A DNA stretch of 64,000 nucleotides, taken from contig JBNGIO010006255.1 of NCBI GenBank assembly GCA_049999805.1, positions 47,400 to 111,399 of the forward strand, read 5' to 3'. Below, piece by piece: positions 13,529 through 48,356 of the stretch (position 1 is the first letter of the stretch; each line of letters opens with the position of its first letter). The translations under genes and the position numbers were made by a program. Under the pieces are notes generated by a model, which was not told where the DNA came from, did no database searches, and worked only from the letters and a program-made list of their open reading frames with translations. The stretch comes from Folioceros fuciformis (Eukaryota).

Positions 13529-14103
13529 CTATTTCGGGTTTAATCCACAAATCTTGTTGTATCCCCTTTTATAAGTTCTCTTACTAAAGGTTCATATTTT
13601 ATATATATTTTTGGTACTTAACATTCTTATGTCCCTTTGATGATGAGTTTCCTAGCTTGGAATCTATATGAGACATGGGTTTTAAAGTACTTAGACATGG
13701 CTATGAAATATGCTTTTAGGGAAGTAGAATTGAATATGGCAATTAGACATGCTTTGAGGGTACTTAGAAAAGAAACACCAAGGGTAGTGCTAGTATAAAA
13801 GGGGCTTATCCTCAAGTTATTTCTTAGTTGTGATTTGAAGTAGCAAGAAGCACTCGAGGTACTAGTTGTACACCAAGGTGTATTAATTTCACCAAATCGT
13901 TTAGCTACACAACAAGGCATATTATTTTCAAAAAATTTACCCTTTATAGTAAAGGTAAATCAGTATGTTTTGATATCATTGATTGGAGCTATGTATTAAA
14001 AATAAATAATTTACAAATTTCACAGTACTAGAGTAGGTATAGTTTGATTTTGTTATTGATGCATGAATTCTAATATATGTAGCTTTGGATCTCTATTGCA
14101 CAG

Positions 14104-15537
14104 ATGAAGAGAATATTATCCCTTAACATGGTATCTAGCGTTCTTTTTACGATCATATGCATCTTATTGGCGGTAACGGTACAAGGAGCTCATAATCATA
14201 GGTATAATGGATCCTTGTATTCGTTTGGTGATTCCTTGGCCGATGTAGGTAACAATAATCATTTGCACTTGAGAGCAAGTGCGAAAGCAAATTACTACCC
14301 ATATGGTCGGGAATTCGACACGAAGAAGGCAACAGGCCGCTTCAGCAACGGCCGTGTCTTGATGGACTATTTTGCAATCCAACTTGGATATGAAAAGTTC
14401 CCTCAACCCTATCTATATCACGCACCACACGCTGTGACGAATGAGGGCGTGAGTTTTGCTTCTGGTAAATCAGGATTGTTGCACGGTACTGGAAGACAAT
14501 ATGGACATGTTATACCATTCCATCGTCAGGTGCAATTGTTCCAACGAAGATTGGTGCCACGTCTTGCTAATCATCTTGAGCAACAGGGTGTCAAACACGT
14601 GAAACATCATGTTGCTAGACACTTGGCGTATTCGTTGTTTTATATTGACGTCGGTACTGATGACTTCACACAAAGAATTGTTGCCCATCGGAACATTTCT
14701 TCTAAACTACTTCACATAACTCTCATTAAGAGGATGGAGGTGAACATCAACAAGTTGTATGAGCAAGGAGCAAGGAAGTTCATCATAGCTGATGTTGGAT
14801 CTTTGGGTTGCTCACCGTTGGTTATTCATGCTACTAATTCGTCGGGATGCAACAAAGTTATTAATAAGCATATTCATGCTTATAACATGAAGATGAATCA
14901 ACATCTTCATAAACATTTTAGCAGCAAACTTCAAGATGCTCGATATGTTTTTCTTCCAACTCTTCACTCAAATAATGAGATTATTCAACACCCCGCTAAG
15001 TATGGATTTGAACATTCTGTTGACGCATGTTGCGGGGATGGAAACACTCCTTGTGGAACTCATGTCCAACATTGTGAAAATTCCAAGACTTTTATTTGGT
15101 GGGATCCATATCATTTCGTGTCTGATGTTTTTCAGACTATGGCAGCATGGTATTTTAGGGGGTCGGCACCCACTACTTTGCAAGGTTCTGGTAGCATACA
15201 AGGCTTGTGCAACGCCACTGTCTCGTACAATTGGGATATTACAATCAGCAATGGATCCAGTTCTAGTAGTTCTAGTAGTTCTAGCAGTTCTAGCAGTTCT
15301 AGCAGTTCTAATGGTTCTAATGGTTCTAGCAATTCGATGCCATTTGTGTATGAGCCCACCACCTCCTATGATTCTTCCCCGCCGCAATCAAGTTCTACTT
15401 ATACACCTGAGCCGTATCAGTGTGGTGGCAGTTCAAGCGGTAGCTATGATGATGAATACTCTTACTCTTATGCTCCTGGTGCTGCACCCTACTATTCAGA
15501 TGGTTGCACCAACGACCTTATCATCAATTCGAGTTAA
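14104..15537 (+). CDS. Secreted GDSL esterase/lipase-like protein, intronless, with Ser/Tyr-rich C-terminal extension
   Basis: Signal peptide; FGDSLADVGNN, PYG..TGRFSNGR, LYEQGARKF, GCSP, ACCG, WWDPYH. Confidence 0.92.
   Translation: MKRILSLNMVSSVLFTIICILLAVTVQGAHNHRYNGSLYSFGDSLADVGNNNHLHLRASAKANYYPYGREFDTKKATGRFSNGRVLMDYFAIQLGYEKFPQPYLYHAPHAVTNEGVSFASGKSGLLHGTGRQYGHVIPFHRQVQLFQRRLVPRLANHLEQQGVKHVKHHVARHLAYSLFYIDVGTDDFTQRIVAHRNISSKLLHITLIKRMEVNINKLYEQGARKFIIADVGSLGCSPLVIHATNSSGCNKVINKHIHAYNMKMNQHLHKHFSSKLQDARYVFLPTLHSNNEIIQHPAKYGFEHSVDACCGDGNTPCGTHVQHCENSKTFIWWDPYHFVSDVFQTMAAWYFRGSAPTTLQGSGSIQGLCNATVSYNWDITISNGSSSSSSSSSSSSSSSSSSNGSNGSSNSMPFVYEPTTSYDSSPPQSSSTYTPEPYQCGGSSSGSYDDEYSYSYAPGAAPYYSDGCTNDLIINSS
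15259..15330 (+). repeat. 9-bp tandem repeat x8 encoding poly-Ser/GSN
   Basis: agttctagt, agttctagc and ggttctaat units. Confidence 0.9.
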
Positions 15538-26572: not shown

Positions 26573-27359
26573 GGACTTCCTCGTTCTTCAGTACGTGCAG
26601 CAGCAGATTCAGGTCACGCTCGTCTTCAGAGTTTTCCCATTGTGTATTAAAATGCTAGGACAGCATCAAACAAGCGGCGAGTCCTCTTGTGAGGACATGA
26701 TTCCTTGAGCATCCACGGACCGTCCATGGTAGCATGTGATGTAAGTGACACCAAACAGTGAGTCAGAAAGGTAAAGACACTGAGAAATAAGGACAAGGAG
26801 GTGATGGAACTAGGGCCGATTCTCGAAGGAGGCGAGGTCCAGCATAAAACCAGTGTCACGATAACACATAGTTCGCGAGTCCCGTATGCAAAGTGCTGAA
26901 CAACCTAGTGCGACTACCTACATCTTGAACATACAATGGGCCTCAGACTTCGTCTCGGGAGGACCTCAATCTGTGATTGTCTTGTCGGCAAGTTGATGTA
27001 ACTGTTGTACAGAGGCAAGGTGCTGGAAGCAAGCTTAGCTGCTTGGCACAGACCTCAGCGGAGTTCTACGCTTCGCAGCCCAATACCTGAAGCAACCTGG
27101 CCAGTTACATCAGACAGAGCTCACCAGATTTTTGTGCTCAGTGACAACTCACTATCTAATACTGCCTAGTAAAAGGGCAACAACGACACACAATCAGCCT
27201 GTCCTAAGAATTCTCATTCGAGAAAAATACGTTTCAAAATTTTGATCCGCAATGCACAAAGCCTCACAAGTATCCGCAACAAATAATCCTTCTCAGACTC
27301 TCCTGTCAGGAATGTCAAAACCGAGTTAGCAAATTAGGGTTACGCATCAGTGAGCATCG

Positions 27360-27944
27360 CTAGATGGCCAGGTACCGCTTGGACAATTGCTTGCCAGCAG
27401 CAAGAGCCCCCGCCACTACGCCTCCCAGCGCGCCTGCAATGGCGGCCGTGCGAGGACCGGCAGTAGCCTTATAAAGCGCCCCGGTACCAAGTCCTGCAAC
27501 TGCGCTGTTCAGAATGTCGTCACTGTTCCGGAAATGACACGCAGCGCTCTCCATGCCGGCATAGAAGAAGCCTAGAATGCCTAGCGTGTTGCCGTAGCTC
27601 TTCCCTCTCTGCCCGGAGGCATTCAACACCCGATTCACCCGCAGCTTGGCCGTGTCCCCTGCCTCTGTAGATCGCAAGCCCTCGACCAGCCCCTTTGCGC
27701 CCCCGGCAACAGCGCCCGACAGGTACCCGACTCCCGTGTAATACGTCAAGTTGTCACTCCAACTCCGCCTCTTCACCGCGGCTTCCTCCGTGAACAGCAG
27801 CTCCGGTGTGGTAGGGAGCCGAAAAATCGTGTCAAGTGACCTCGCATCCACGGGCCCATATAGATCTGCGTAGGGGTTATACAGGCGAGTGCCGCTGCCA
27901 CCGCTGTCCCCTACAAACCCGCCGTCGTGCTCGGCATCCTCCAT
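27360..27944 (-). CDS. TIM23: Mitochondrial inner-membrane translocase TIM23, intronless
   Basis: RLYNPY..LPTTPELLF.EE..RRSWSDNLTYYTG, KLRVNRVLNASG, GxxxG-rich TM segments. Confidence 0.92.
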   Translation of the reverse strand: MEDAEHDGGFVGDSGGSGTRLYNPYADLYGPVDARSLDTIFRLPTTPELLFTEEAAVKRRSWSDNLTYYTGVGYLSGAVAGGAKGLVEGLRSTEAGDTAKLRVNRVLNASGQRGKSYGNTLGILGFFYAGMESAACHFRNSDDILNSAVAGLGTGALYKATAGPRTAAIAGALGGVVAGALAAGKQLSKRYLAI

Positions 27945-29145
27945 CTGGCCAGTCCTTCCTTCCTATGTCCACTGCGCACTCAGAGCTGCAACACGAATCC
28001 CTTCGCCACGCGCAGAACACACCAACTTTCCTGGCATCCGTCGGTCTCCCTGTGCGTGTGGTCTCCTGTGGCCTGCAATAACGGCGCAGATTTAACCAGG
28101 GCTACAGAGGAGCAATCGGTCCGGGAGAATTGTGCGTTTATATTCCGGGATCTTCTTTCCTCGAGCCAGGATTGACAAGTACGCAACGCTTACAGCCTAG
28201 GTCCGTTTATTCACCTGAATCAAAGGCGTCACCGAGGATCTAAAGCTCTAGACTGTTTATTCCAGTGACTCTAACTGTCTCTACTATTCTGGCCGGCGAA
28301 TTCATAGTTCTGACGGACGCTAACTCATGCCACCTCGCTCTCTGCCTCTCAGACCTATGCTCGACAATGCAGTTTGTAAGTTCCTCACGGTAAAGCGGAC
28401 ATGAGAAACAGGGGACCACTGGGTGGAAATCTATGGCTCCATCGGAGCAAACGGAGTCCGTGCTGCAACCCCGTGGAGGAATGGTGCAGGCGTTTATCAA
28501 GTCTTCGGGCCTCGGGGGAGCACAGCAATGGTGAAAGCGAGGGATTGGAAGTCGAGCCTTCTAGTTACCTAGCTGACGGTGATTTTGTTCTGGGGCAAGC
28601 AATTGTTGGGGTTTTGGGGGGATGGAAACATAATCTCTTATGCTGGATTGCAGATGAGCCAGTAACTGGGCAGGCTTTGCCGGTGGTTTCTCATCGCTAC
28701 TACTCCAGAACAAGGTTCCAGCAGGTAGGGTGGATGGTTATTCGCTGATGCCTCTGCTGTCCGCTTTTGGGGTTTGACAGGGTGAGGAGGGTAATGACTG
28801 GCAGGCATTCCTTGGTGGGCAGTTTGCAGCTGACCATGAGTAATCGCCACAGACAGACCCCAAGTACGTGGATTTCGTCCACAGCACATTGAGGGAGCGC
28901 GACGGCTGGCGGCTCGACCCCTGCTGGAACCCTGCTTGGGTCATCTCAGAAGATGCCGCCACACTCCAGCAAGGTCAACATGTGGCGGTTGGGAGTGAAG
29001 CTTACTTGGGGCTGGATCCAGTCAGGTACCTCTCTCCCTCGTTCAGGGGCTTCTGGGCTGTGGTCACAAGACAGGCTGGGTCTGATAAAAGAAATGTGGG
29101 GAAACCTGCAGAGTTGAGAACAGTGAAGATTGCATTGAATTATGG

Positions 29146-31230
29146 ATGAAATGGTGGGAGGATGGAGGGGTCGCTGGGGCCTGTCAGGTGTCGGAGGCCA
29201 CGACCCGGCGAGTGTTTGTTGCGAGGGAAATACTGTACCATATGTTGAAAGGATGCATGGCAAGACACGATCTGTTTCTTGGGAGGCGCATTCATGCTCT
29301 CGCTGTAAGTAGCGGGTACGGGACTGACTCCGTTTTTGCAAACCAGCTTATCCGGATGTATACTTCTCATGGGAGTTTGGGAGAAGCAAGCCAGGTGTTC
29401 GACAATCTCCCTGCTCCCAATCAATTTGTGTGGGCTTCTATTATCGGAGCACATGCTGAGCTGGGTGAAGCTAAGGAAGCAGTAAGGCTGTATGAGCGGA
29501 TGAAGCAGACAGGTGTGGAGCCAAATCAGTACATTCTTGTAGCAGTGCTGCAGGCATGTGCGGGAGCAGGGGATTTGTCGGCTGGCAAGTGGGTTCACGC
29601 TGACGTGATGGACAGCGGATTGGAATCGAACTTGTTTGTGGGAAGTACTTTGGTGGACATGTATGCCAAATGTGGGAGCTTGCAGGATGCTCGAAGGGTT
29701 TTTGATGGACTGTCTACGAGAAATGTCGTGACTTGGAGTGCAATCATAACAGCATATGCGCAGCATGGGCTTGGCCAGGAAGCCTTGGATCTGTACAAAC
29801 AAATGCAGCAAGATGGCATAGCGGCAGCTAACCGCGTCACTTTTCTCGGAATTTTGAAAGCTTGTAGTAAAGTTGGGGCCATCCACGAGGCGAAGCAGAT
29901 CCACTCAGAGATTTTAGGAAGGGGTCTTGAGGCAGATGTATTTATAGGAAGCTGCCTGGTGGACATGTATGCGAAATGTGGGAGCCTTGATGATGCACGG
30001 AGAGTCTTTGACAGACTCTCGACCAGAAATCTCGTCACATGGAATGCCATGGTTGCAGGTTATGCTACGCAAGGACTCGGTCAAGAGGCTCTCAAATTGT
30101 ACCTGCAGATGGAGCAGAATGGGCTGTTGCTCCCAAACGAAGTTACTTTTGTGAGCATTCTTAAAGCATGTAGCGGTATTGGGGCCATACAGCAGGGCAA
30201 GAGGATTCACTCGCAGATTCTGGAAAGGGGATTGGAAGCTGATATGTTTGTGGGAAGCACCTTGGTGGACATGTACGGTAAATGTGGGGAACTGGAGGAT
30301 GCTCGCAACGTTTTTGAAAACGTGTCATCCAAAAACGTAGTCACATGGAATGCGCTCATCAATGCTTACGGCCAGCACAACGAGTGTGGAATGGCCATCC
30401 AGTGCTTTGAGGAGATGAAGCGTGCTGGTGTTGTTCCAGATGCGTCGACATTTGTTGGTCTGCTTATGGCCTGTAGTCATGTAGGTTGGGTACCAGAGGG
30501 CCAACGGTACTTCGCTCTCATGACTCAAGAACATAGGATACGGCCTGAGATTGAGCATTACACCTGCATGGTTGATCTCCTAGCTCGGGCAGGGCACCTG
30601 GCTGAAGCAGAACGCATGTTGCAGACGGAGCCTCATACGCATGACACGGTTGGGTGGATATCTCTCCTTCATGCGTGCAAGATGTTTGGCAACGTGGATC
30701 TGGGCAAGCGTTGCTTCGACCGCCTTGTTGAACTAGATCCGCGACATTCCTCAGGATACACGATTATGTCTAACATCTACACAGATGCCGGAAGGTGGGC
30801 TGATGCCGAATCCATCAAGAGTTTGAGAAAAAGCGCAGGTGCAGAGAAAAAGGCTGCAAGAGCCTTCATCGAAGTGAACTACAGGGTGCACGAGTTTGTA
30901 GTAGGACAGGAGCGTGGAGACACGGTTGCCAAGCTTACAAGTCTGAACTGCCAAACGAAGGAGGAGAAAACAGATCATGCAGAGTCCACTGGCACAGAGG
31001 ACGAAGGGGCCCTGTGCGGACATGCTGAGAAACTGGCGTTGGCCTTTGGCCTCCTCAACACACCCGAGGGAACAACCCTTCTGGTGGTCAAGAATCTGCG
31101 AATGTGCAATCACTGCCACTCCGGCACCAAGCTGTTGTCTAGGGTAGAAAAACGAGAGATCATCGTCAGAGATGCACACCGGGTTCATCGCTTCACGAAT
31201 GGAGTGTGCTCTTGCCGGGACCACCGATGA
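29146..31230 (+). CDS. PLS-class PPR protein (14 PPR motifs, E1, E2) with a DYW:KP-type deaminase domain; possible upstream exons from 28401
   Basis: L-S-(P-L-S)x3-P2-L2-S2-E1-E2; KKAARAFIEV in place of the PG box; HAEKLA (31021); CNHC (31105-31116); ends CSCRDHR. Confidence 0.95.
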   Translation: MKWWEDGGVAGACQVSEATTRRVFVAREILYHMLKGCMARHDLFLGRRIHALAVSSGYGTDSVFANQLIRMYTSHGSLGEASQVFDNLPAPNQFVWASIIGAHAELGEAKEAVRLYERMKQTGVEPNQYILVAVLQACAGAGDLSAGKWVHADVMDSGLESNLFVGSTLVDMYAKCGSLQDARRVFDGLSTRNVVTWSAIITAYAQHGLGQEALDLYKQMQQDGIAAANRVTFLGILKACSKVGAIHEAKQIHSEILGRGLEADVFIGSCLVDMYAKCGSLDDARRVFDRLSTRNLVTWNAMVAGYATQGLGQEALKLYLQMEQNGLLLPNEVTFVSILKACSGIGAIQQGKRIHSQILERGLEADMFVGSTLVDMYGKCGELEDARNVFENVSSKNVVTWNALINAYGQHNECGMAIQCFEEMKRAGVVPDASTFVGLLMACSHVGWVPEGQRYFALMTQEHRIRPEIEHYTCMVDLLARAGHLAEAERMLQTEPHTHDTVGWISLLHACKMFGNVDLGKRCFDRLVELDPRHSSGYTIMSNIYTDAGRWADAESIKSLRKSAGAEKKAARAFIEVNYRVHEFVVGQERGDTVAKLTSLNCQTKEEKTDHAESTGTEDEGALCGHAEKLALAFGLLNTPEGTTLLVVKNLRMCNHCHSGTKLLSRVEKREIIVRDAHRVHRFTNGVCSCRDHR

Positions 31231-31443
31231 GAGAAGAGTTGAGTAGTGACATGAGATGATTTGTTCACAGTAGTTCCCACCCTTTCACAATGGCCTTGTG
31301 ATCAACGTTACGCAAGTGAATTCCCTCTTCATCAGCTAGCCTGGCTAACCAGAAAACCGGCGCTCATAAAGGACCATCTGGACCGTTTTAATACGAATGA
31401 TTACGAAGGCTCCGAACGCCGGAGAGACAGAAGTAAGGTGAAA

Positions 31444-32273
31444 ATGTTGGGAGCGGAATCGATTTGCAACACAGGGTTTCTCGTGTGCAACGCTGTTACC
31501 GTGTGCCTGCCGTCAGGTACTTGCAGACTCCGCGGTCTGCAACTGCAGGAATGGAACGCTTTCGGTGGCTGCAGGCTGAAACCTTGTCGCAGCCCTCAGG
31601 AGCTGATCGGCAAGACGGCTTCCAGTTGCGCTGTGCCAAGAGCGGGGCCTTTTGATGGGGTTAGGGCAAGAGAACAGGAGGAGCAGCGGACACCAGAAGT
31701 TGGTGCCAACTTCCAATCTGGTGCGTGCTTCGTTGGTGTGATACACAGTAGCAGCAGAGGCCAACTTCTTCTCGAGCTGCTGCAATTGTTTGCTCCTTGG
31801 ATTGCAGAAGCAAGGGATCAGGCCGAACAACTCTGGCGACTGCTTTTCTCCAATCCGTCGCAATGGTGGGATGACAGGAACAAGAAGGTAAGTTGATCAC
31901 CAGTTCGGAATTGTGTGAACCTCCAGCTCCTGCAGTGTAAAATTAGGTTTTACTATGAATTCATGGAGGAATATGGTTTTGCCTTCAGAGATACCCAAGT
32001 GACCCCGATTTTGTGAAAAAAGGCACCAAAGAGAGGCTGTGGATCGACGGTAATGTTCCTGATTGGGTGCGGGCAGAGTTAGCGAAGTTGCCGGCTCCAG
32101 CTAGGCCACCGCCGAACGTGAGGCAGGTGTACTCACCGCCCTCTAACACAGATATGCACAGGCCAGGCGGTCGCATGGGACCCTCGCGTTACAGGCCGCC
32201 GGTCTCCGAGGCTGTGCAAGCCGATAGGGAAAGACGAGCAAGGGAAATTCTTGAAGGCATTGGCTGGGAGTGA
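31444..32273 (+). CDS. Protein with a single OSB-type PDF motif and no visible OB-fold; intron 31888-31988
   Basis: LWRLLFSNPSQWWDDRNKK|RYPSDPDFVKKGTKERLWIDGNVPDWVRAEL joined in frame across aag|gtaagt..ttcag. Confidence 0.8.
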
Positions 32274-32885
32274 CGATGACAACTCCTTTGAGGTGGGCAG
32301 AACCATTGCTCTTTTGAAGTTACACAAGTTACAGCTTCTCATTTAAGTTAAGGTTGTTCAAAAATTCGAGGTCGCACAAATTATGTACAATCCGGCACTT
32401 TTTCCAAGGAGAAACAAGTCTATCAAATTTCAAGCAGCTAGCTACGGGAAAGGATGCCACCCAGACCTGGGAAGGGAGGGTACACAGATTTGCCAGCAAT
32501 GTCACCTAAAAAATGCATCCGCCTGCATTTCATAATTCTCCTAGTGGAAATCCAAACCATCTGCATCGCAAAAGTTCTATTGAGGTTATGCAGGTTTAAT
32601 GGAAACCGAGTACCAGCGAGCTGCTGCAATTCCAAAGCAAGAGACTCCTGCTCGGCGAACATCTAGAAATGTCCCCGCAGGTAATTCTGAGATCTCTGAC
32701 CACAAGAGGACCCCAACGAGAACTTACCAACGAGACCACAACGAACTTCTGATGACTAAAGCAGCTACAGCAGCCACGAAGGGAAGTTGGACATCCTCAA
32801 AACTTGCTGCATGAGTTACATGGACCACCAATGTCCACAGTTGTCCCGAGTCAAATTTCTTGCACAGCTGCCTGCTCAACATCAT

Positions 32886-38235: not shown

Positions 38236-39605
38236 ACGCACTTGGGTGAGATAGCTAGCTAGCTTTTAAGGTGTAAAAGTGCTTGCCAACCAATTCCAAG
38301 AACGGACTTAACTGGTGTGCACTTGGATGCACAGGCACTTGATGATCACTTGGGTGTGCTCAAAGGTTGGGCCAAAGAGAAAAAAGATAATCAAACCCCG
38401 CTTCAATCAGCCAATTGTAGAGAAATTCAAGGTCACTAATGTACTTCACATCTCTTGTGTACTTTTAAAAAACTCTGTCTTTGGAAAATAAAAAGGAACA
38501 ATTAGGTAGACATGGTACAATGGCAGGCTTTATGCTTCAAAAGTATAAGAAAAAGGGTTAGTAGTTGTAACCAAGATAACTCACTATGAAGGCCGTAATA
38601 TTTGAAGCAGTGGAATATACAAACCTTCCGAAAGCAAATTCCGAAGGCTGCAACCGAATTCTGGAGCTTGCATCCCGAGAACCAATCCTATGTTGTTCTT
38701 CAAGATAGTGGCTGTGTCCTCTTCATTTGCCCAAAACTCGTCCCACCACTGGAAGGCTTCAACAATTCAAATGGTCTTGATTCAGGCAAGCCAACCTTGA
38801 CTTCCAATCCGCGAGGCCCTCTCTCGGCCCCACAGAAACCTGGGACCTCCATTATGCAAGTCCATGAGCCCACCACGGGCTTGTCGATGTGCGGGACAAG
38901 GATACAATGCTCCTCATTGGGTCCGGGCCTCTCCAAGGACTCACCAAGTAACAACAGGCCATCACCTGCTGGCCCCAGGCCTTGCGAGCTCCCAGGATAG
39001 CTCTTAGATGTGGCGGGAGTAGGAGCCGATGCCCGCAATTCATATGTGCAAAAACATGCTTTGTTAGGGTTTCTCACACATATTACAAACAATGTCTAGT
39101 CTTTTGCTCTATCCCCCGATGCTAGCCACTCTCTCAAATGTTAGAACAGAAAGGAACCTTGCGCAAACATGAATGAATGGAGATCTTGCAAGACAATTTC
39201 GGGCTTGGTCTTTCAGGATTCCCGAGTGCGGATCTTCCTCTTCCCAGATGAAAACTTGGTTGGGAGTCCCGGGTCTCAAATCTTGTTCCATCTAGAGCGG
39301 CGAGTGGAGAATTTGGAGACGTACACGAAAGCCATGGATTCCGTGCGCTCTTGGACGGACTCATACGCTTGCATCGACAAAAGCACGACCACTTGCACGT
39401 TGGAAATGCAAGACTCGCAGTAACGGGAGCGTTGGAGGAACGAAGAGTCTGGCTTTCGTGCCCTTCTTCAGAGACTTTGGGTTTAGTGCATCGGGTTTAC
39501 ACAGGCGTTTGCCATTGGAGGAGGAGAAAATGGTGTAAAATTTCTATAGTACATCGGTTGGTGTCCCGCTGGTACCCACACCACAAGTGCATGGATTCCC
39601 TTGCC

Positions 39606-46306: not shown

Positions 46307-48085
46307 TCAGAGTATGCGTCTGAATTTCAGGTAGCTGAACATAGCTATGAAGAGAGCAAAGCCGCCAAATATGATGCCAGAGGTTGTGATCCAGAAAGCC
46401 AGGACATGCTCCTCCAAGTATGACCTCAAGTTCATACCAAAAATGCCTGCGATCAGAGCTCCCAAGGCGGAACAGAATGTGCCCACCTGCAGCAGCAGCT
46501 CCAGACGGCTTACCTCGAGTCTCCTTGAGCTCAAATTAACTGAGATGGAGTCCTCCATCTCCCTTGCAGAATCAAGCAACTTCTGGGCCTGACCATGACA
46601 TGAATCGCACCGCTGGAGGTAGAACTCTAGAAGCATCTCTATCTCTTCTTCCTTGTCTTCCACAGCCTGTTTGTCTAAAATGGCATCGCATTCTACCTGG
46701 CCACTGTCTCGCCGAAAGCTACACTTCATGCCCATGATAGAGATGCGGTGGATTTCCTCCTGGTGCTCCAGGAGTTCCAGTAACATCTGCTGCAAGGACC
46801 CTGCCTTGGAGCTGAGCTCCACCAATGCTTGCTTGCTCAGCCGCAGTTCCTCTAGCACATCAGCTGTGTATCGTGTTGGTAGCACGGCCAACAGAGACTT
46901 CACTCGAGGTTCAACCTCCTGGAGCATGTTCTCAAGTCGTTGGGTCCTAGAAACCAGGGCTGCCTCCACCACTTCCAGCTCGAAGGGCATGGTAGCACCA
47001 GTTCCATCAGCTAACACTCTAGGATATAAAGCTTCCAGAAATGTTCGAGCTCCAACACTGTGCTGATCAAATACCAAAACGTTTTCAGGGGTTGCAATTG
47101 CCCTCAAAGACCCCAAGTTTAGCAATATTGCTCTATCACGAACGAGGATGCCAGGCAAGGAGGTGGTCGACCACAAGGAGGGGTCAATGCGCCTTATGTC
47201 TCTCAGCCTCAGACCGCTACTTCTCAGAAGCTGTCGCCTGCTCACAGTTCGTTGCTCAACCCTCCGTCCTGCAGTCACCTCAAGCACCTCGTACACAGGC
47301 TCCTTGGCTGCTATGGCTATAGATTCAGCGCAAGAAGTGGAGGCAGAGCCAAAGATGGAGCCCTCACTTCTCGAGCTTTCAGCGTCCCATCCATCCTCTG
47401 ACAGGTCATCTCCGTCATCACTCTTCCGCCCCCCTTCGCTTGAGCTCACGAACTCCCCATCCACAACCCATTGCTCAAAGGACTGCTCCAGTGCTTTGTC
47501 CGGATGTGTTCCCAGATCCTCAACTCGTTGTCTGAGAGCTCCGTTCAATTCTCCTTCATGCGTTCCCAACGAAAAGGCTTGCACATGGGAATCAGACTTA
47601 GTAAGACCCGATATCCTCTCGCCCGATTGCTGCTGCTGCTGCACCACTCTTGACCCACTCAAGAGAGGTTCTCCTTCACAACCATCTCCAGACTCTCCAC
47701 CTCTTCTGGTACCAGCAGCCACCACACGCGGCTTTCTGTAACCGGCGCCATAGGACTGATCCTCCCCAGCAAGGAACGCAGACCAAGCTCCTGACAAGGT
47801 CAAGCACTTCCCCAGCACCTTCACCCTCTCCCTGCAAAGAAGCAGGGCACACACTGCAGAAATTTCACAAGAGGTCCACCCAGAACCCCGCTTGTGAGCG
47901 TGGCACGTCTTCTGCAACGTATCCCTATTCCCGCCACCAAAACCCCGTGACAAGCCATCGCAACCGGCCTGCGTGATGCCACACAGGCTAGAATCCGCTG
48001 CCTCAAAGCTGGCTGCCTGAACGCGAACTGGAGCCAAGGCAAACGACCTGGGCCTGACAGCGCACATTGCAGGACTCCAAGCCAT
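46307..48085 (-). CDS. MRS2-11: CorA/MRS2 magnesium transporter, plastid MRS2-11/MGT10-like (the N-terminal part may contain an intron)
   Basis: SRRQLLRSSGLRLRDIRRIDPSL, MPFELEVVEAAL, EIEMLLE, GIFGMNL and two C-terminal TM helices. Confidence 0.92.
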   Translation of the reverse strand: MAWSPAMCAVRPRSFALAPVRVQAASFEAADSSLCGITQAGCDGLSRGFGGGNRDTLQKTCHAHKRGSGWTSCEISAVCALLLCRERVKVLGKCLTLSGAWSAFLAGEDQSYGAGYRKPRVVAAGTRRGGESGDGCEGEPLLSGSRVVQQQQQSGERISGLTKSDSHVQAFSLGTHEGELNGALRQRVEDLGTHPDKALEQSFEQWVVDGEFVSSSEGGRKSDDGDDLSEDGWDAESSRSEGSIFGSASTSCAESIAIAAKEPVYEVLEVTAGRRVEQRTVSRRQLLRSSGLRLRDIRRIDPSLWSTTSLPGILVRDRAILLNLGSLRAIATPENVLVFDQHSVGARTFLEALYPRVLADGTGATMPFELEVVEAALVSRTQRLENMLQEVEPRVKSLLAVLPTRYTADVLEELRLSKQALVELSSKAGSLQQMLLELLEHQEEIHRISIMGMKCSFRRDSGQVECDAILDKQAVEDKEEEIEMLLEFYLQRCDSCHGQAQKLLDSAREMEDSISVNLSSRRLEVSRLELLLQVGTFCSALGALIAGIFGMNLRSYLEEHVLAFWITTSGIIFGGFALFIAMFSYLKFRRIL

Positions 48086-48356
48086 CTTCGCTGCCCTGGC
48101 AAGATGGCAGGTGCATCTCTGTGGTCACCAGATGGATTGCCCCTTTACAGCTTAAGTGACATCACGCGCAACAACGCCCCGTCAAGCCCGCCTGACACCC
48201 GGAGCGGAGAGAACCACATAAGCTTTTACCCTGCTCCCGCTTTTCCTTTCCCTACTCAATTTTAGCACGTCTCTGTCCAGATGTAGCAAGCCACTGGGTA
48301 CTCGATTCTCGATTCATCGCAGCACGTTTCGACCTTGCAATCCCGAGCCATGCAGC

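Follow-up and report, generated by a model that had tools for sequence, protein, structure and literature searches.

The window, that is, the whole stretch of 64,000 nt analysed here, contains a single PPR gene, at 29146-31230, and this locus raises the question of whether the DNA to the left of the gene encodes, or once encoded, the N-terminus of its product. In genomic DNA the PPR frame is an open reading frame running from stop to stop at 29089-31230 on the + strand, closed upstream by TGA-TAA at 29083-29088, and its first in-frame ATG, at 29146, opens a coding sequence of 694 codons (29146..31230, +). A start at this ATG leaves ~25-30 residues before the first repeat, which is short for an organelle presequence. 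The first-pass annotation had proposed that an exon of 324 nt opening at ATG 28401, an exon of 245 nt and a last exon from 29112 onward are joined in frame by GT-AG introns, and that the second of these exons carries a degenerate PDF motif of the kind found in OSB proteins, interrupted by a single stop codon. Its coordinates, its in-frame arithmetic, its translation of the second exon, the TAA at 28841-28843 and the closure by TGA-TAA are all correct in the sequence: the three exons do join in frame, GT occurs at 28725-26 and 29026-27 and AG at 28779-80 and 29110-11, and the frame of ATG 28401 is shut just upstream by TAA at 28377-79.

The protein encoded by the PPR gene is a candidate U-to-C editing factor, as judged by its PPR-DYW:KP type. 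Pfam recognises eight PPR stretches in the ORF, with E values of 1.8e-64 for PPR, 4e-16 for E_motif and 1.4e-28 for DYW_deaminase. The passages of PMC9478123 on KP-type proteins distinguish them by the PG box, by an active site reading HAE as opposed to HSE, and by the last triplet; the protein from the window reads GHAEKLA at the active site (HAE), has KKAARAFIEV instead of PG.SWIEV, and ends in DHR. A protein search with the PPR sequence returned 7440 relatives at E <= 1e-30, the best 120 of which served as the test set; the best identity is 53%, and neither an orthologue nor a gene model of the locus itself is present among these best 120 of 7440. The ten closest relatives are also KP-type, and one KP-type relative, P0001, begins exactly at the start of the last exon in the window. 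In relatives a 'KLC.EG.L.EA' segment stands before the first repeat; ATG 29146 lies within a degenerate copy of it and is the most likely start of the protein.

Evidence for splicing upstream of this ATG comes from assembled transcript-like contigs in four runs, X1-X4, which are treated as RNA-derived on account of their GT..AG joints, no run being recorded as RNA; transcript starts, strands and rare isoforms are invisible in such contigs. X1 is from the same organism (0-1 other letters), whereas X2-X4 are from a relative, in which ~6-10 of every 100 letters differ across the pieces covering the leader and the first part of the PPR ORF. The first leader intron, 28201..28352 (+, 152 nt, GT..AG), is read from X1 record 1, in which pieces 27300-28198 and 28351-28720 are adjacent; shifting the joint, which skips 28199-28350, by 2 places GT at 28201-02 and AG at 28351-52. 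The joint of this intron is absent among the 15 joints listed (53 more were returned). Since the intron lies on the + strand, the leader of the PPR gene must start to the left of 28200, and 28401 is thus not the start of the leader as had been supposed. The same X1 record crosses, unspliced, a divergent neighbouring ORF of the Tim17/Tim22/Tim23 family (27360..27962, -; Pfam PF02466, E 6e-29; first Met near 27944) before continuing into the PPR leader, and because a single record spans both, the 5' ends of the Tim17-family gene and the PPR gene probably overlap.

The leader exon that follows, 28353..28724 (+), contains ATG 28401 and is bounded by the donor at 28724 that had been predicted. Its partner is different. 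The second leader intron, 28725..28822 (+, 98 nt, GT..AG), is present in X1, X2, X3 and X4 (joint 28720->28819, cut at +4), so that the acceptor in use is 28822/28823, whereas the acceptor proposed at 28780/28781 lies inside this intron together with the first third of the PDF-like sequence; the string 'NDWQAFLGGQ', which had been read as part of the second exon, is likewise intronic. No joint 28724->28781 was found among the 15 joints listed (53 more) in X1-X4. The exon in use is accordingly 28823..29025 (+), which reads FAADHE-stop and is thereafter open to the PPR frame; its pieces, 28819-29022, contain 0 other letters in X1 and 13 in X2-X4. The third leader intron, 29026..29111 (+, 86 nt, GT..AG), was predicted correctly, holds the TGA-TAA at 29083-88 and occurs in all four runs (joint 29022->29109, cut at +3, with a side of 204 in three of them). 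The exon is joined to the PPR exon across this intron in X1 record 1, X2 record 5 and X3 record 11. Spliced contigs thus connect the upstream exons to the PPR frame, as had been foreseen, and the PDF-like sequence and the PPR array are likely to reside on one mature transcript.

The spliced leader does not, as it stands, extend the protein. The ORF from ATG 28401 comprises 114 codons and terminates at the TAA at 28841..28843 (+), which is the same in the X1 contig and falls near contig ends in X2-X4, although X1 is possibly the sample from which the window itself was assembled and is then not an independent witness. Beyond the TAA, the 72 codons of the PPR-linked frame that precede ATG 29146 include neither a stop nor another ATG. 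Counted from 28353, the 609-nt spliced leader contains 13 upstream ATGs, of which that at 28401 is the only one in the PPR frame; given this number, translation of the mRNA would be expected to be inefficient if no second start site were in use. The peptide of the first exon (28401-28724) has no Pfam match, and its best BLASTP match to the best 120 PPR relatives has an E value of 0.54 at unrelated positions.

The sequence that had been compared with a PDF motif extends over 28799..28978 (+) and reads W-Q-x-F ... DPKYVDFVH ... WNPAWV, broken by the TAA. As described in the parts of PMC6963530 and PMC4166229 that concern it, the PDF motif comprises ~50 aa, is named for a conserved Pro-Asp-Phe, and suffices for ssDNA binding in AtOSB1. 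An undamaged example is available within the window, where a separate gene at 31444..32273 (+), on the same strand, 214 nt past the PPR stop and 3 kb from the sequence in question, encodes a protein of 213 aa that has a single intact PDF motif. This gene has three exons, and its introns, 31721-31807 and 31888-31988, are backed by pieces 29956-31719, 31807-31885 and 31987-32700 of X1 record 3. Pfam detects no domain in its exons or in the PPR leader peptides. A search of representative proteins (1.84 billion) with its last exon gave 22 proteins at E <= 1e-3, most of them having several PDF motifs; P0134, P0139 and P0141 were left out as unrelated-looking, and the remaining 19 proteins yielded an OSB-type PDF profile of 52 positions from 79 motif instances. 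With this profile the conceptual protein of the downstream gene scores 34.5 and 20.7 bits. A further search with the same exon, restricted to longer proteins, gave 152 candidates and none at E <= 0.01, the filter being unsuited to a motif of 35 aa.

Tested with these tools, the leader sequence is unimpressive. On the window, the OSB-type profile gives 28853-28897 just 0.2 bits (E about 20), below chance matches, and the peptide of the second exon taken alone scores 3.6 bits, a value reached by 33 of 2000 shuffles. BLASTP against the true PDF motif of the neighbouring gene gives an E value of 0.076 over 14 aa, and when the neighbour's motif is used as tblastn query the region is not found in its proper register. 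The latter search also returned a match at 39424-39483 (-) with an E value of 0.029, which is regarded as chance, being supported by neither of the two PDF profiles used here. Results of this kind would be expected if the upstream exons were an ordinary intron-containing 5' UTR in which a PDF-like string had arisen by coincidence within 64 kb, and the likeness to the OSB type that the first-pass annotation had drawn is not upheld by them.

The same OSB-type profile, applied to PPR proteins, gave an unexpected answer: among the 120 best PPR relatives, 17 are matched at the N-terminus, with scores of 34-73 bits. These 17 are proteins of Diphasiastrum complanatum and Calypogeia fissa together with one JGI protein. 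A dedicated fusion search of 5.8 billion proteins, limited to lengths of 618-1969 aa and using the PDF region of P0003 as query, returned 126 candidates, 124 of them at E <= 1e-3, and PPR Pfam domains are present in all 120 of the 124 that were listed. The listed proteins are mostly from Diphasiastrum complanatum, then from several Sphagnum species and Calypogeia fissa, with some JGI and ENA entries. The motif is N-terminal in all 120, its median end being residue 158, and occurs in one, two and three copies in 96, 18 and 6 of them, respectively. In the AlphaFold model of a 649-aa Sphagnum PDF-PPR-DYW protein, the motif has a pLDDT of 66-89 and precedes the PPR solenoid as two helices with short strands between them. 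Some of the PDF-PPR proteins are ORFs from short metagenome contigs, and gene calling of that kind implies that no interruption of the frame separates the motif from the PPR array. Intact fusions of the kind foreseen in the first-pass annotation therefore do exist, all of them in other taxa, and with them and the spliced contigs the case that would have refuted that annotation does not arise.

The combination of PDF motif and PPR array appears to be undescribed, in that we could not find a paper linking the two in a search of main-text passages, the one text in which both terms came up being a replication review, and an earlier mention is possible. The main text of a 2026 kingdom-wide survey of editing factors names neither PDF nor OSB; RRM, LAGLIDADG, SMR, NYN, CBS and SAP, but not PDF, are given as extra domains in a 2022 overview of Physcomitrium PPR proteins; and the available text of a 2026 survey of OSB evolution makes no mention of PPR. 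It seems that the module went unnoticed in PPR proteins because Pfam has no model for PDF.

A second profile, of 72 positions, was built from 17 motifs of PPR relatives and included no sequence from the window. This PPR-linked profile gives 28853-28978 (+) a score of 13.8 bits, with E 0.004-0.0055 among the 2338 six-frame ORFs of the window. The segment ranks third window-wide, the first two places going to two exons of the stand-alone PDF gene, and the next match reaches 5.9 bits. None of 100 block-shuffled windows attains 13.8 bits, the shuffle maximum being 13.7, and a larger PPR-linked profile of 186 motif instances raises the score of the relic to 15.6 bits. BLASTP of the exon-2 peptide, aligned from the Trp codon at 28799, against the best 120 PPR relatives finds matches only at the positions of their N-terminal PDF motifs, the best five E values being 1.5e-4, 2e-4, 1e-3, 2e-3 and 4e-3 and the proteins matched including P0044, P0017, P0100, P0103 and P0013.

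A score of 13.8 bits is modest, and the case for the relic would depend on the PPR-linked subfamily of PDF motifs, but the match is also where such a motif ought to be. When the second and third exons are joined into a conceptual protein, BLASTP aligns it in one HSP from q7, the first Trp of the motif, to q601 in eight of nine PDF-PPR proteins tested, with a spacing of 595 residues compared with 583 for P0003. The first half of the relic aligns without gaps, Trp to PKY being 20 residues in the relic and in the PDF-PPR proteins alike, and the likeness continues across the exon junction, with NSED against NSD and W.K..EDG against SK.C.EGRL. Judged by sequence, 28853-28978 is homologous to PPR-linked PDF motifs. 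The resemblance noted in the first-pass annotation is thus sustained by the PPR-linked profile in the same region where the OSB-type profile fails. Coincidence, for which the 0.2 bits with the OSB-type profile, the weak matches to the neighbour and the one shuffled window at 13.7 bits might be cited, is quite improbable in view of a window-wide E of 0.004 with an independent profile that no shuffle equals, of a match whose strand, reading frame and distance are those expected of a motif lying ahead of the window's one PPR gene, and of a single colinear alignment into the PPR array with the spacing of 20 residues preserved.

Homology to PDF motifs would also be accounted for if the relic were a local duplicate of part of the stand-alone gene at 31444-32273 and had never belonged to a PPR protein, PDF-coding DNA being at hand on the same strand only 214 nt past the PPR stop. 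The relic is nevertheless nearer to PPR-linked motifs (E 1.5e-4) than to its neighbour (E 0.076). At positions that read PSDPDFVKK and VPDWV in the neighbour, it agrees with the PPR-linked type in having PKY.DF.H and NP.WV; it contains no intron at the point where the neighbour's motif is split by 31888-31988, and its likeness to PDF-PPR proteins runs through the linker into the PPR array. Local duplication is, in our estimation, the least credible of the explanations considered for this exon.

The module in this copy is decayed, a relic, as the first-pass annotation had concluded. By manual count it keeps six of the 16 columns that are invariant in 41 aligned PDF-PPR-DYW proteins. The Pro of P-D-F is gone (the relic reads V-D-F), as are the WWD.R block and the K-H-K lysines; FAADHE-stop occupies the position of WWD.R, so that the TAA sits in the former block, and the acceptor in use, 28822/28823, lies inside the former motif, the first third of which is spliced out. 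The scores of 13.8-15.6 bits compare with 107-143 bits for the motifs of intact PDF-PPR proteins. An uninterrupted frame through motif and PPR array, which those proteins have, fails here at TAA 28841-43 both in the window and in the X1 contig.

There are, even so, features of the exon that might suggest that a fusion protein is still made from ATG 28401, as a minor isoform or by read-through of the stop, the remaining half of the PDF motif then supplying the missing presequence. ATG 28401 is in the same frame as the PPR array, the frame is open again from 28844 to the PPR over the 72 codons mentioned above, and the ORF from ATG 29146 has almost no presequence of its own. The GC content of exon 2 by codon position, 0.67/0.47/0.67, is coding-like, and of the 13 substitutions between the two species the 10 listed divide into five silent and five replacing changes in the PPR-linked frame, none of which creates a stop in the relative's exon; the even split speaks neither for nor against residual constraint. 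Just past the TAA there are two AG dinucleotides, at 28851-52 and 28855-56, the first of which would preserve the frame if used. However, the acceptor 28822/23, which retains the TAA, is the one used in all four runs, and among the 15 joints listed (53 more) none lies past TAA 28841-43; the segment, even if translated, would be without 10 of the 16 invariant PDF residues; and the leader contains 12 out-of-frame upstream ATGs. Continued production of a fusion is therefore unlikely, although we hold it to be the least unlikely of the alternatives to a spliced leader containing a vestige.

The reading that we regard as probable is that 28353-29145 is a spliced 5' leader whose middle exon is the vestige of a coding exon for an N-terminal PDF motif, and that the ancestor of the gene encoded a PDF-PPR fusion. 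This ancestor would have resembled the fusions that a lycophyte, Sphagnum mosses and a leafy liverwort still encode, intact and in large numbers. Its N-terminal coding exon would have become part of a spliced leader and would have decayed there, acquiring the in-frame TAA, losing the Pro and the WWDNR block and coming to be entered by an acceptor inside the former motif. What remains of the leader, with its three introns and 13 upstream ATGs, may be untranslated or may bear upstream ORFs, and the editing factor would be translated from ATG 29146, just before the first PPR repeat. The direction of change would be loss rather than gain, and the relic would have no function of its own.

The suggestion of the first-pass annotation that the architecture is a feature of DYW:KP proteins is not supported by the survey. 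None of the 120 listed PDF-PPR proteins is HAE-type, 55 being of the HSE/PG type and 65 lacking a complete DYW by pattern, and a PDF motif is present in none of the 11 KP-type relatives, which are single-ORF calls from contigs from which an upstream exon would escape. Two relatives with an H-C-E active site have weak N-terminal PDF-like remnants of 9-10 bits. As no intact KP-type PDF protein was found, the descent of the KP gene from a PDF-PPR ancestor is something that we infer from a single relic. The related suggestion that a PDF module tethers U-to-C editing to nucleoids cannot operate at this locus, because of the stop codon and the loss of 10 of 16 invariant residues; elsewhere it is speculation. 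The broader proposition, that the PDF motif has an ancient place, and a wide distribution, at the N-terminus of PLS-class PPR editing factors of non-seed land plants and that the KP gene described here is in the course of losing it, is one on which we find ourselves evenly divided.

Editing factors of the PPR type from bryophytes and lycophytes serve as minimal editors that work on their own, also in bacterial and human cells. An N-terminal module that had escaped recognition in more than 100 such factors would bear on how they find or hold their substrates, and also on where the boundaries of constructs are chosen. If the PDF motif binds single-stranded nucleic acid beside the PPR tract, it may add non-specific affinity for RNA or may couple editing factors to nucleoid ssDNA, and in either case the editing machinery of early land plants would turn out to have an accessory function that is new. 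The module would also tie organelle RNA editing to the OSB proteins of genome maintenance, which share the PDF motif. For the locus itself, the gene model would have a three-intron leader followed by a start at ATG 29146, and the loss of a domain from a KP-type gene would have left in that leader a trace that can be dated. Intact upstream PDF exons of other KP-type genes would escape single-ORF gene calls.

The window's gene may be compared with four known systems. With the PPR-DYW:KP proteins of hornworts, lycophytes and ferns, which include candidate and engineered U-to-C factors, it shares the PLS array, the E motif, the HAE site, the lack of a PG box and an end other than DYW; the passages of PMC9478123 on these proteins mention no N-terminal PDF motif. 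OSB proteins and PDF-PPR proteins have motifs of the same family, an OSB-like multi-PDF profile giving the N-termini of PDF-PPR proteins 60-73 bits. In OSBs, however, the PDF motifs are C-terminal to an OB-like fold, whereas here the PDF sequence lies ahead of the PPR repeats in a gene without such a fold, and neither the Pro nor the WWDNR block nor the reading frame survives in the window's copy. The PDF-PPR proteins resemble the gene in that PDF, a short linker, a PLS-type PPR array and the E motif follow in the same order and with the same spacing. Those proteins have a presequence ahead of the PDF motif and often a DYW domain at the end, and are named 'hypothetical protein' or 'pentatricopeptide repeat protein' in the databases; they are intact, and HSE/PG-type or without a complete DYW, whereas the gene described here is KP-type and its motif lies outside the present ORF. 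Finally, the leader resembles other intron-containing 5' leaders that carry upstream ORFs in its three GT..AG introns and 13 upstream ATGs, but unlike them it remains recognisable, in part, as the former coding sequence of the same gene.

The window is ordinary, gene-dense plant nuclear DNA, in which long open reading frames encode an ABC-F-type ATPase domain (405–1703, + strand), a GDSL lipase domain (14083–15537, + strand) and an MRS2/CorA magnesium-transporter domain (46307–48124, − strand). No second PPR gene is found within the 64 kb. Divergent to the PPR gene lies an open reading frame of the Tim17/Tim22/Tim23 family (27360–27962, − strand). A single contig of X1, a transcript-like set from the same organism, contains both this frame and the spliced PPR leader, which suggests a bidirectional promoter with overlapping 5′ ends for the two genes.

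Within the leader, a 732-nt contig from a relative (run X4, record 19) matches the window only at 28793–28861, with 5 differences over 69 bases, and this match spans both the acceptor at 28822/28823 and the in-frame TAA of the PDF relic. Either an alternative isoform or a paralogue of the relic could account for this contig.

An intact PDF-PPR arrangement is represented by the 649-aa Sphagnum magellanicum protein P0241, for which the AlphaFold model (md2ebd90eb9c7) predicts a helix, two or three short strands and a second helix in the N-terminal PDF region (approximately residues 38–95; pLDDT 66–89). Residues 1–37 are disordered in the model, as would be expected of a presequence. Weak N-terminal PDF-like remnants are present in two PPR-DYW proteins retrieved as relatives of the PPR protein in the window, P0056 (residues 44–62, 9.6 bits) and P0104 (residues 72–93, 9.4 bits), both of which have the H-C-E active-site variant and non-DYW ends; these remnants hint that the PDF motif has decayed in other lineages as well.

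Downstream of the PPR gene, a stand-alone PDF-motif gene (31444–32273, + strand) encodes a protein of 213 aa whose N-terminus resembles a presequence and whose tail is rich in Pro; it has a single intact PDF motif, which an intron interrupts in the gene. One X1 contig runs unbroken from 29956, inside the PPR frame, through the PPR stop and into this gene, and the two transcripts therefore overlap or read through. A 20-aa tblastn match to the same motif at 39424–39483 (− strand; E 0.029) is supported by neither the generic OSB-type nor the PPR-linked PDF profile and is taken as chance. The 213-aa protein lacks an OB fold and is therefore not a classical OSB; the 402-aa protein P0137 looks to be a relative.
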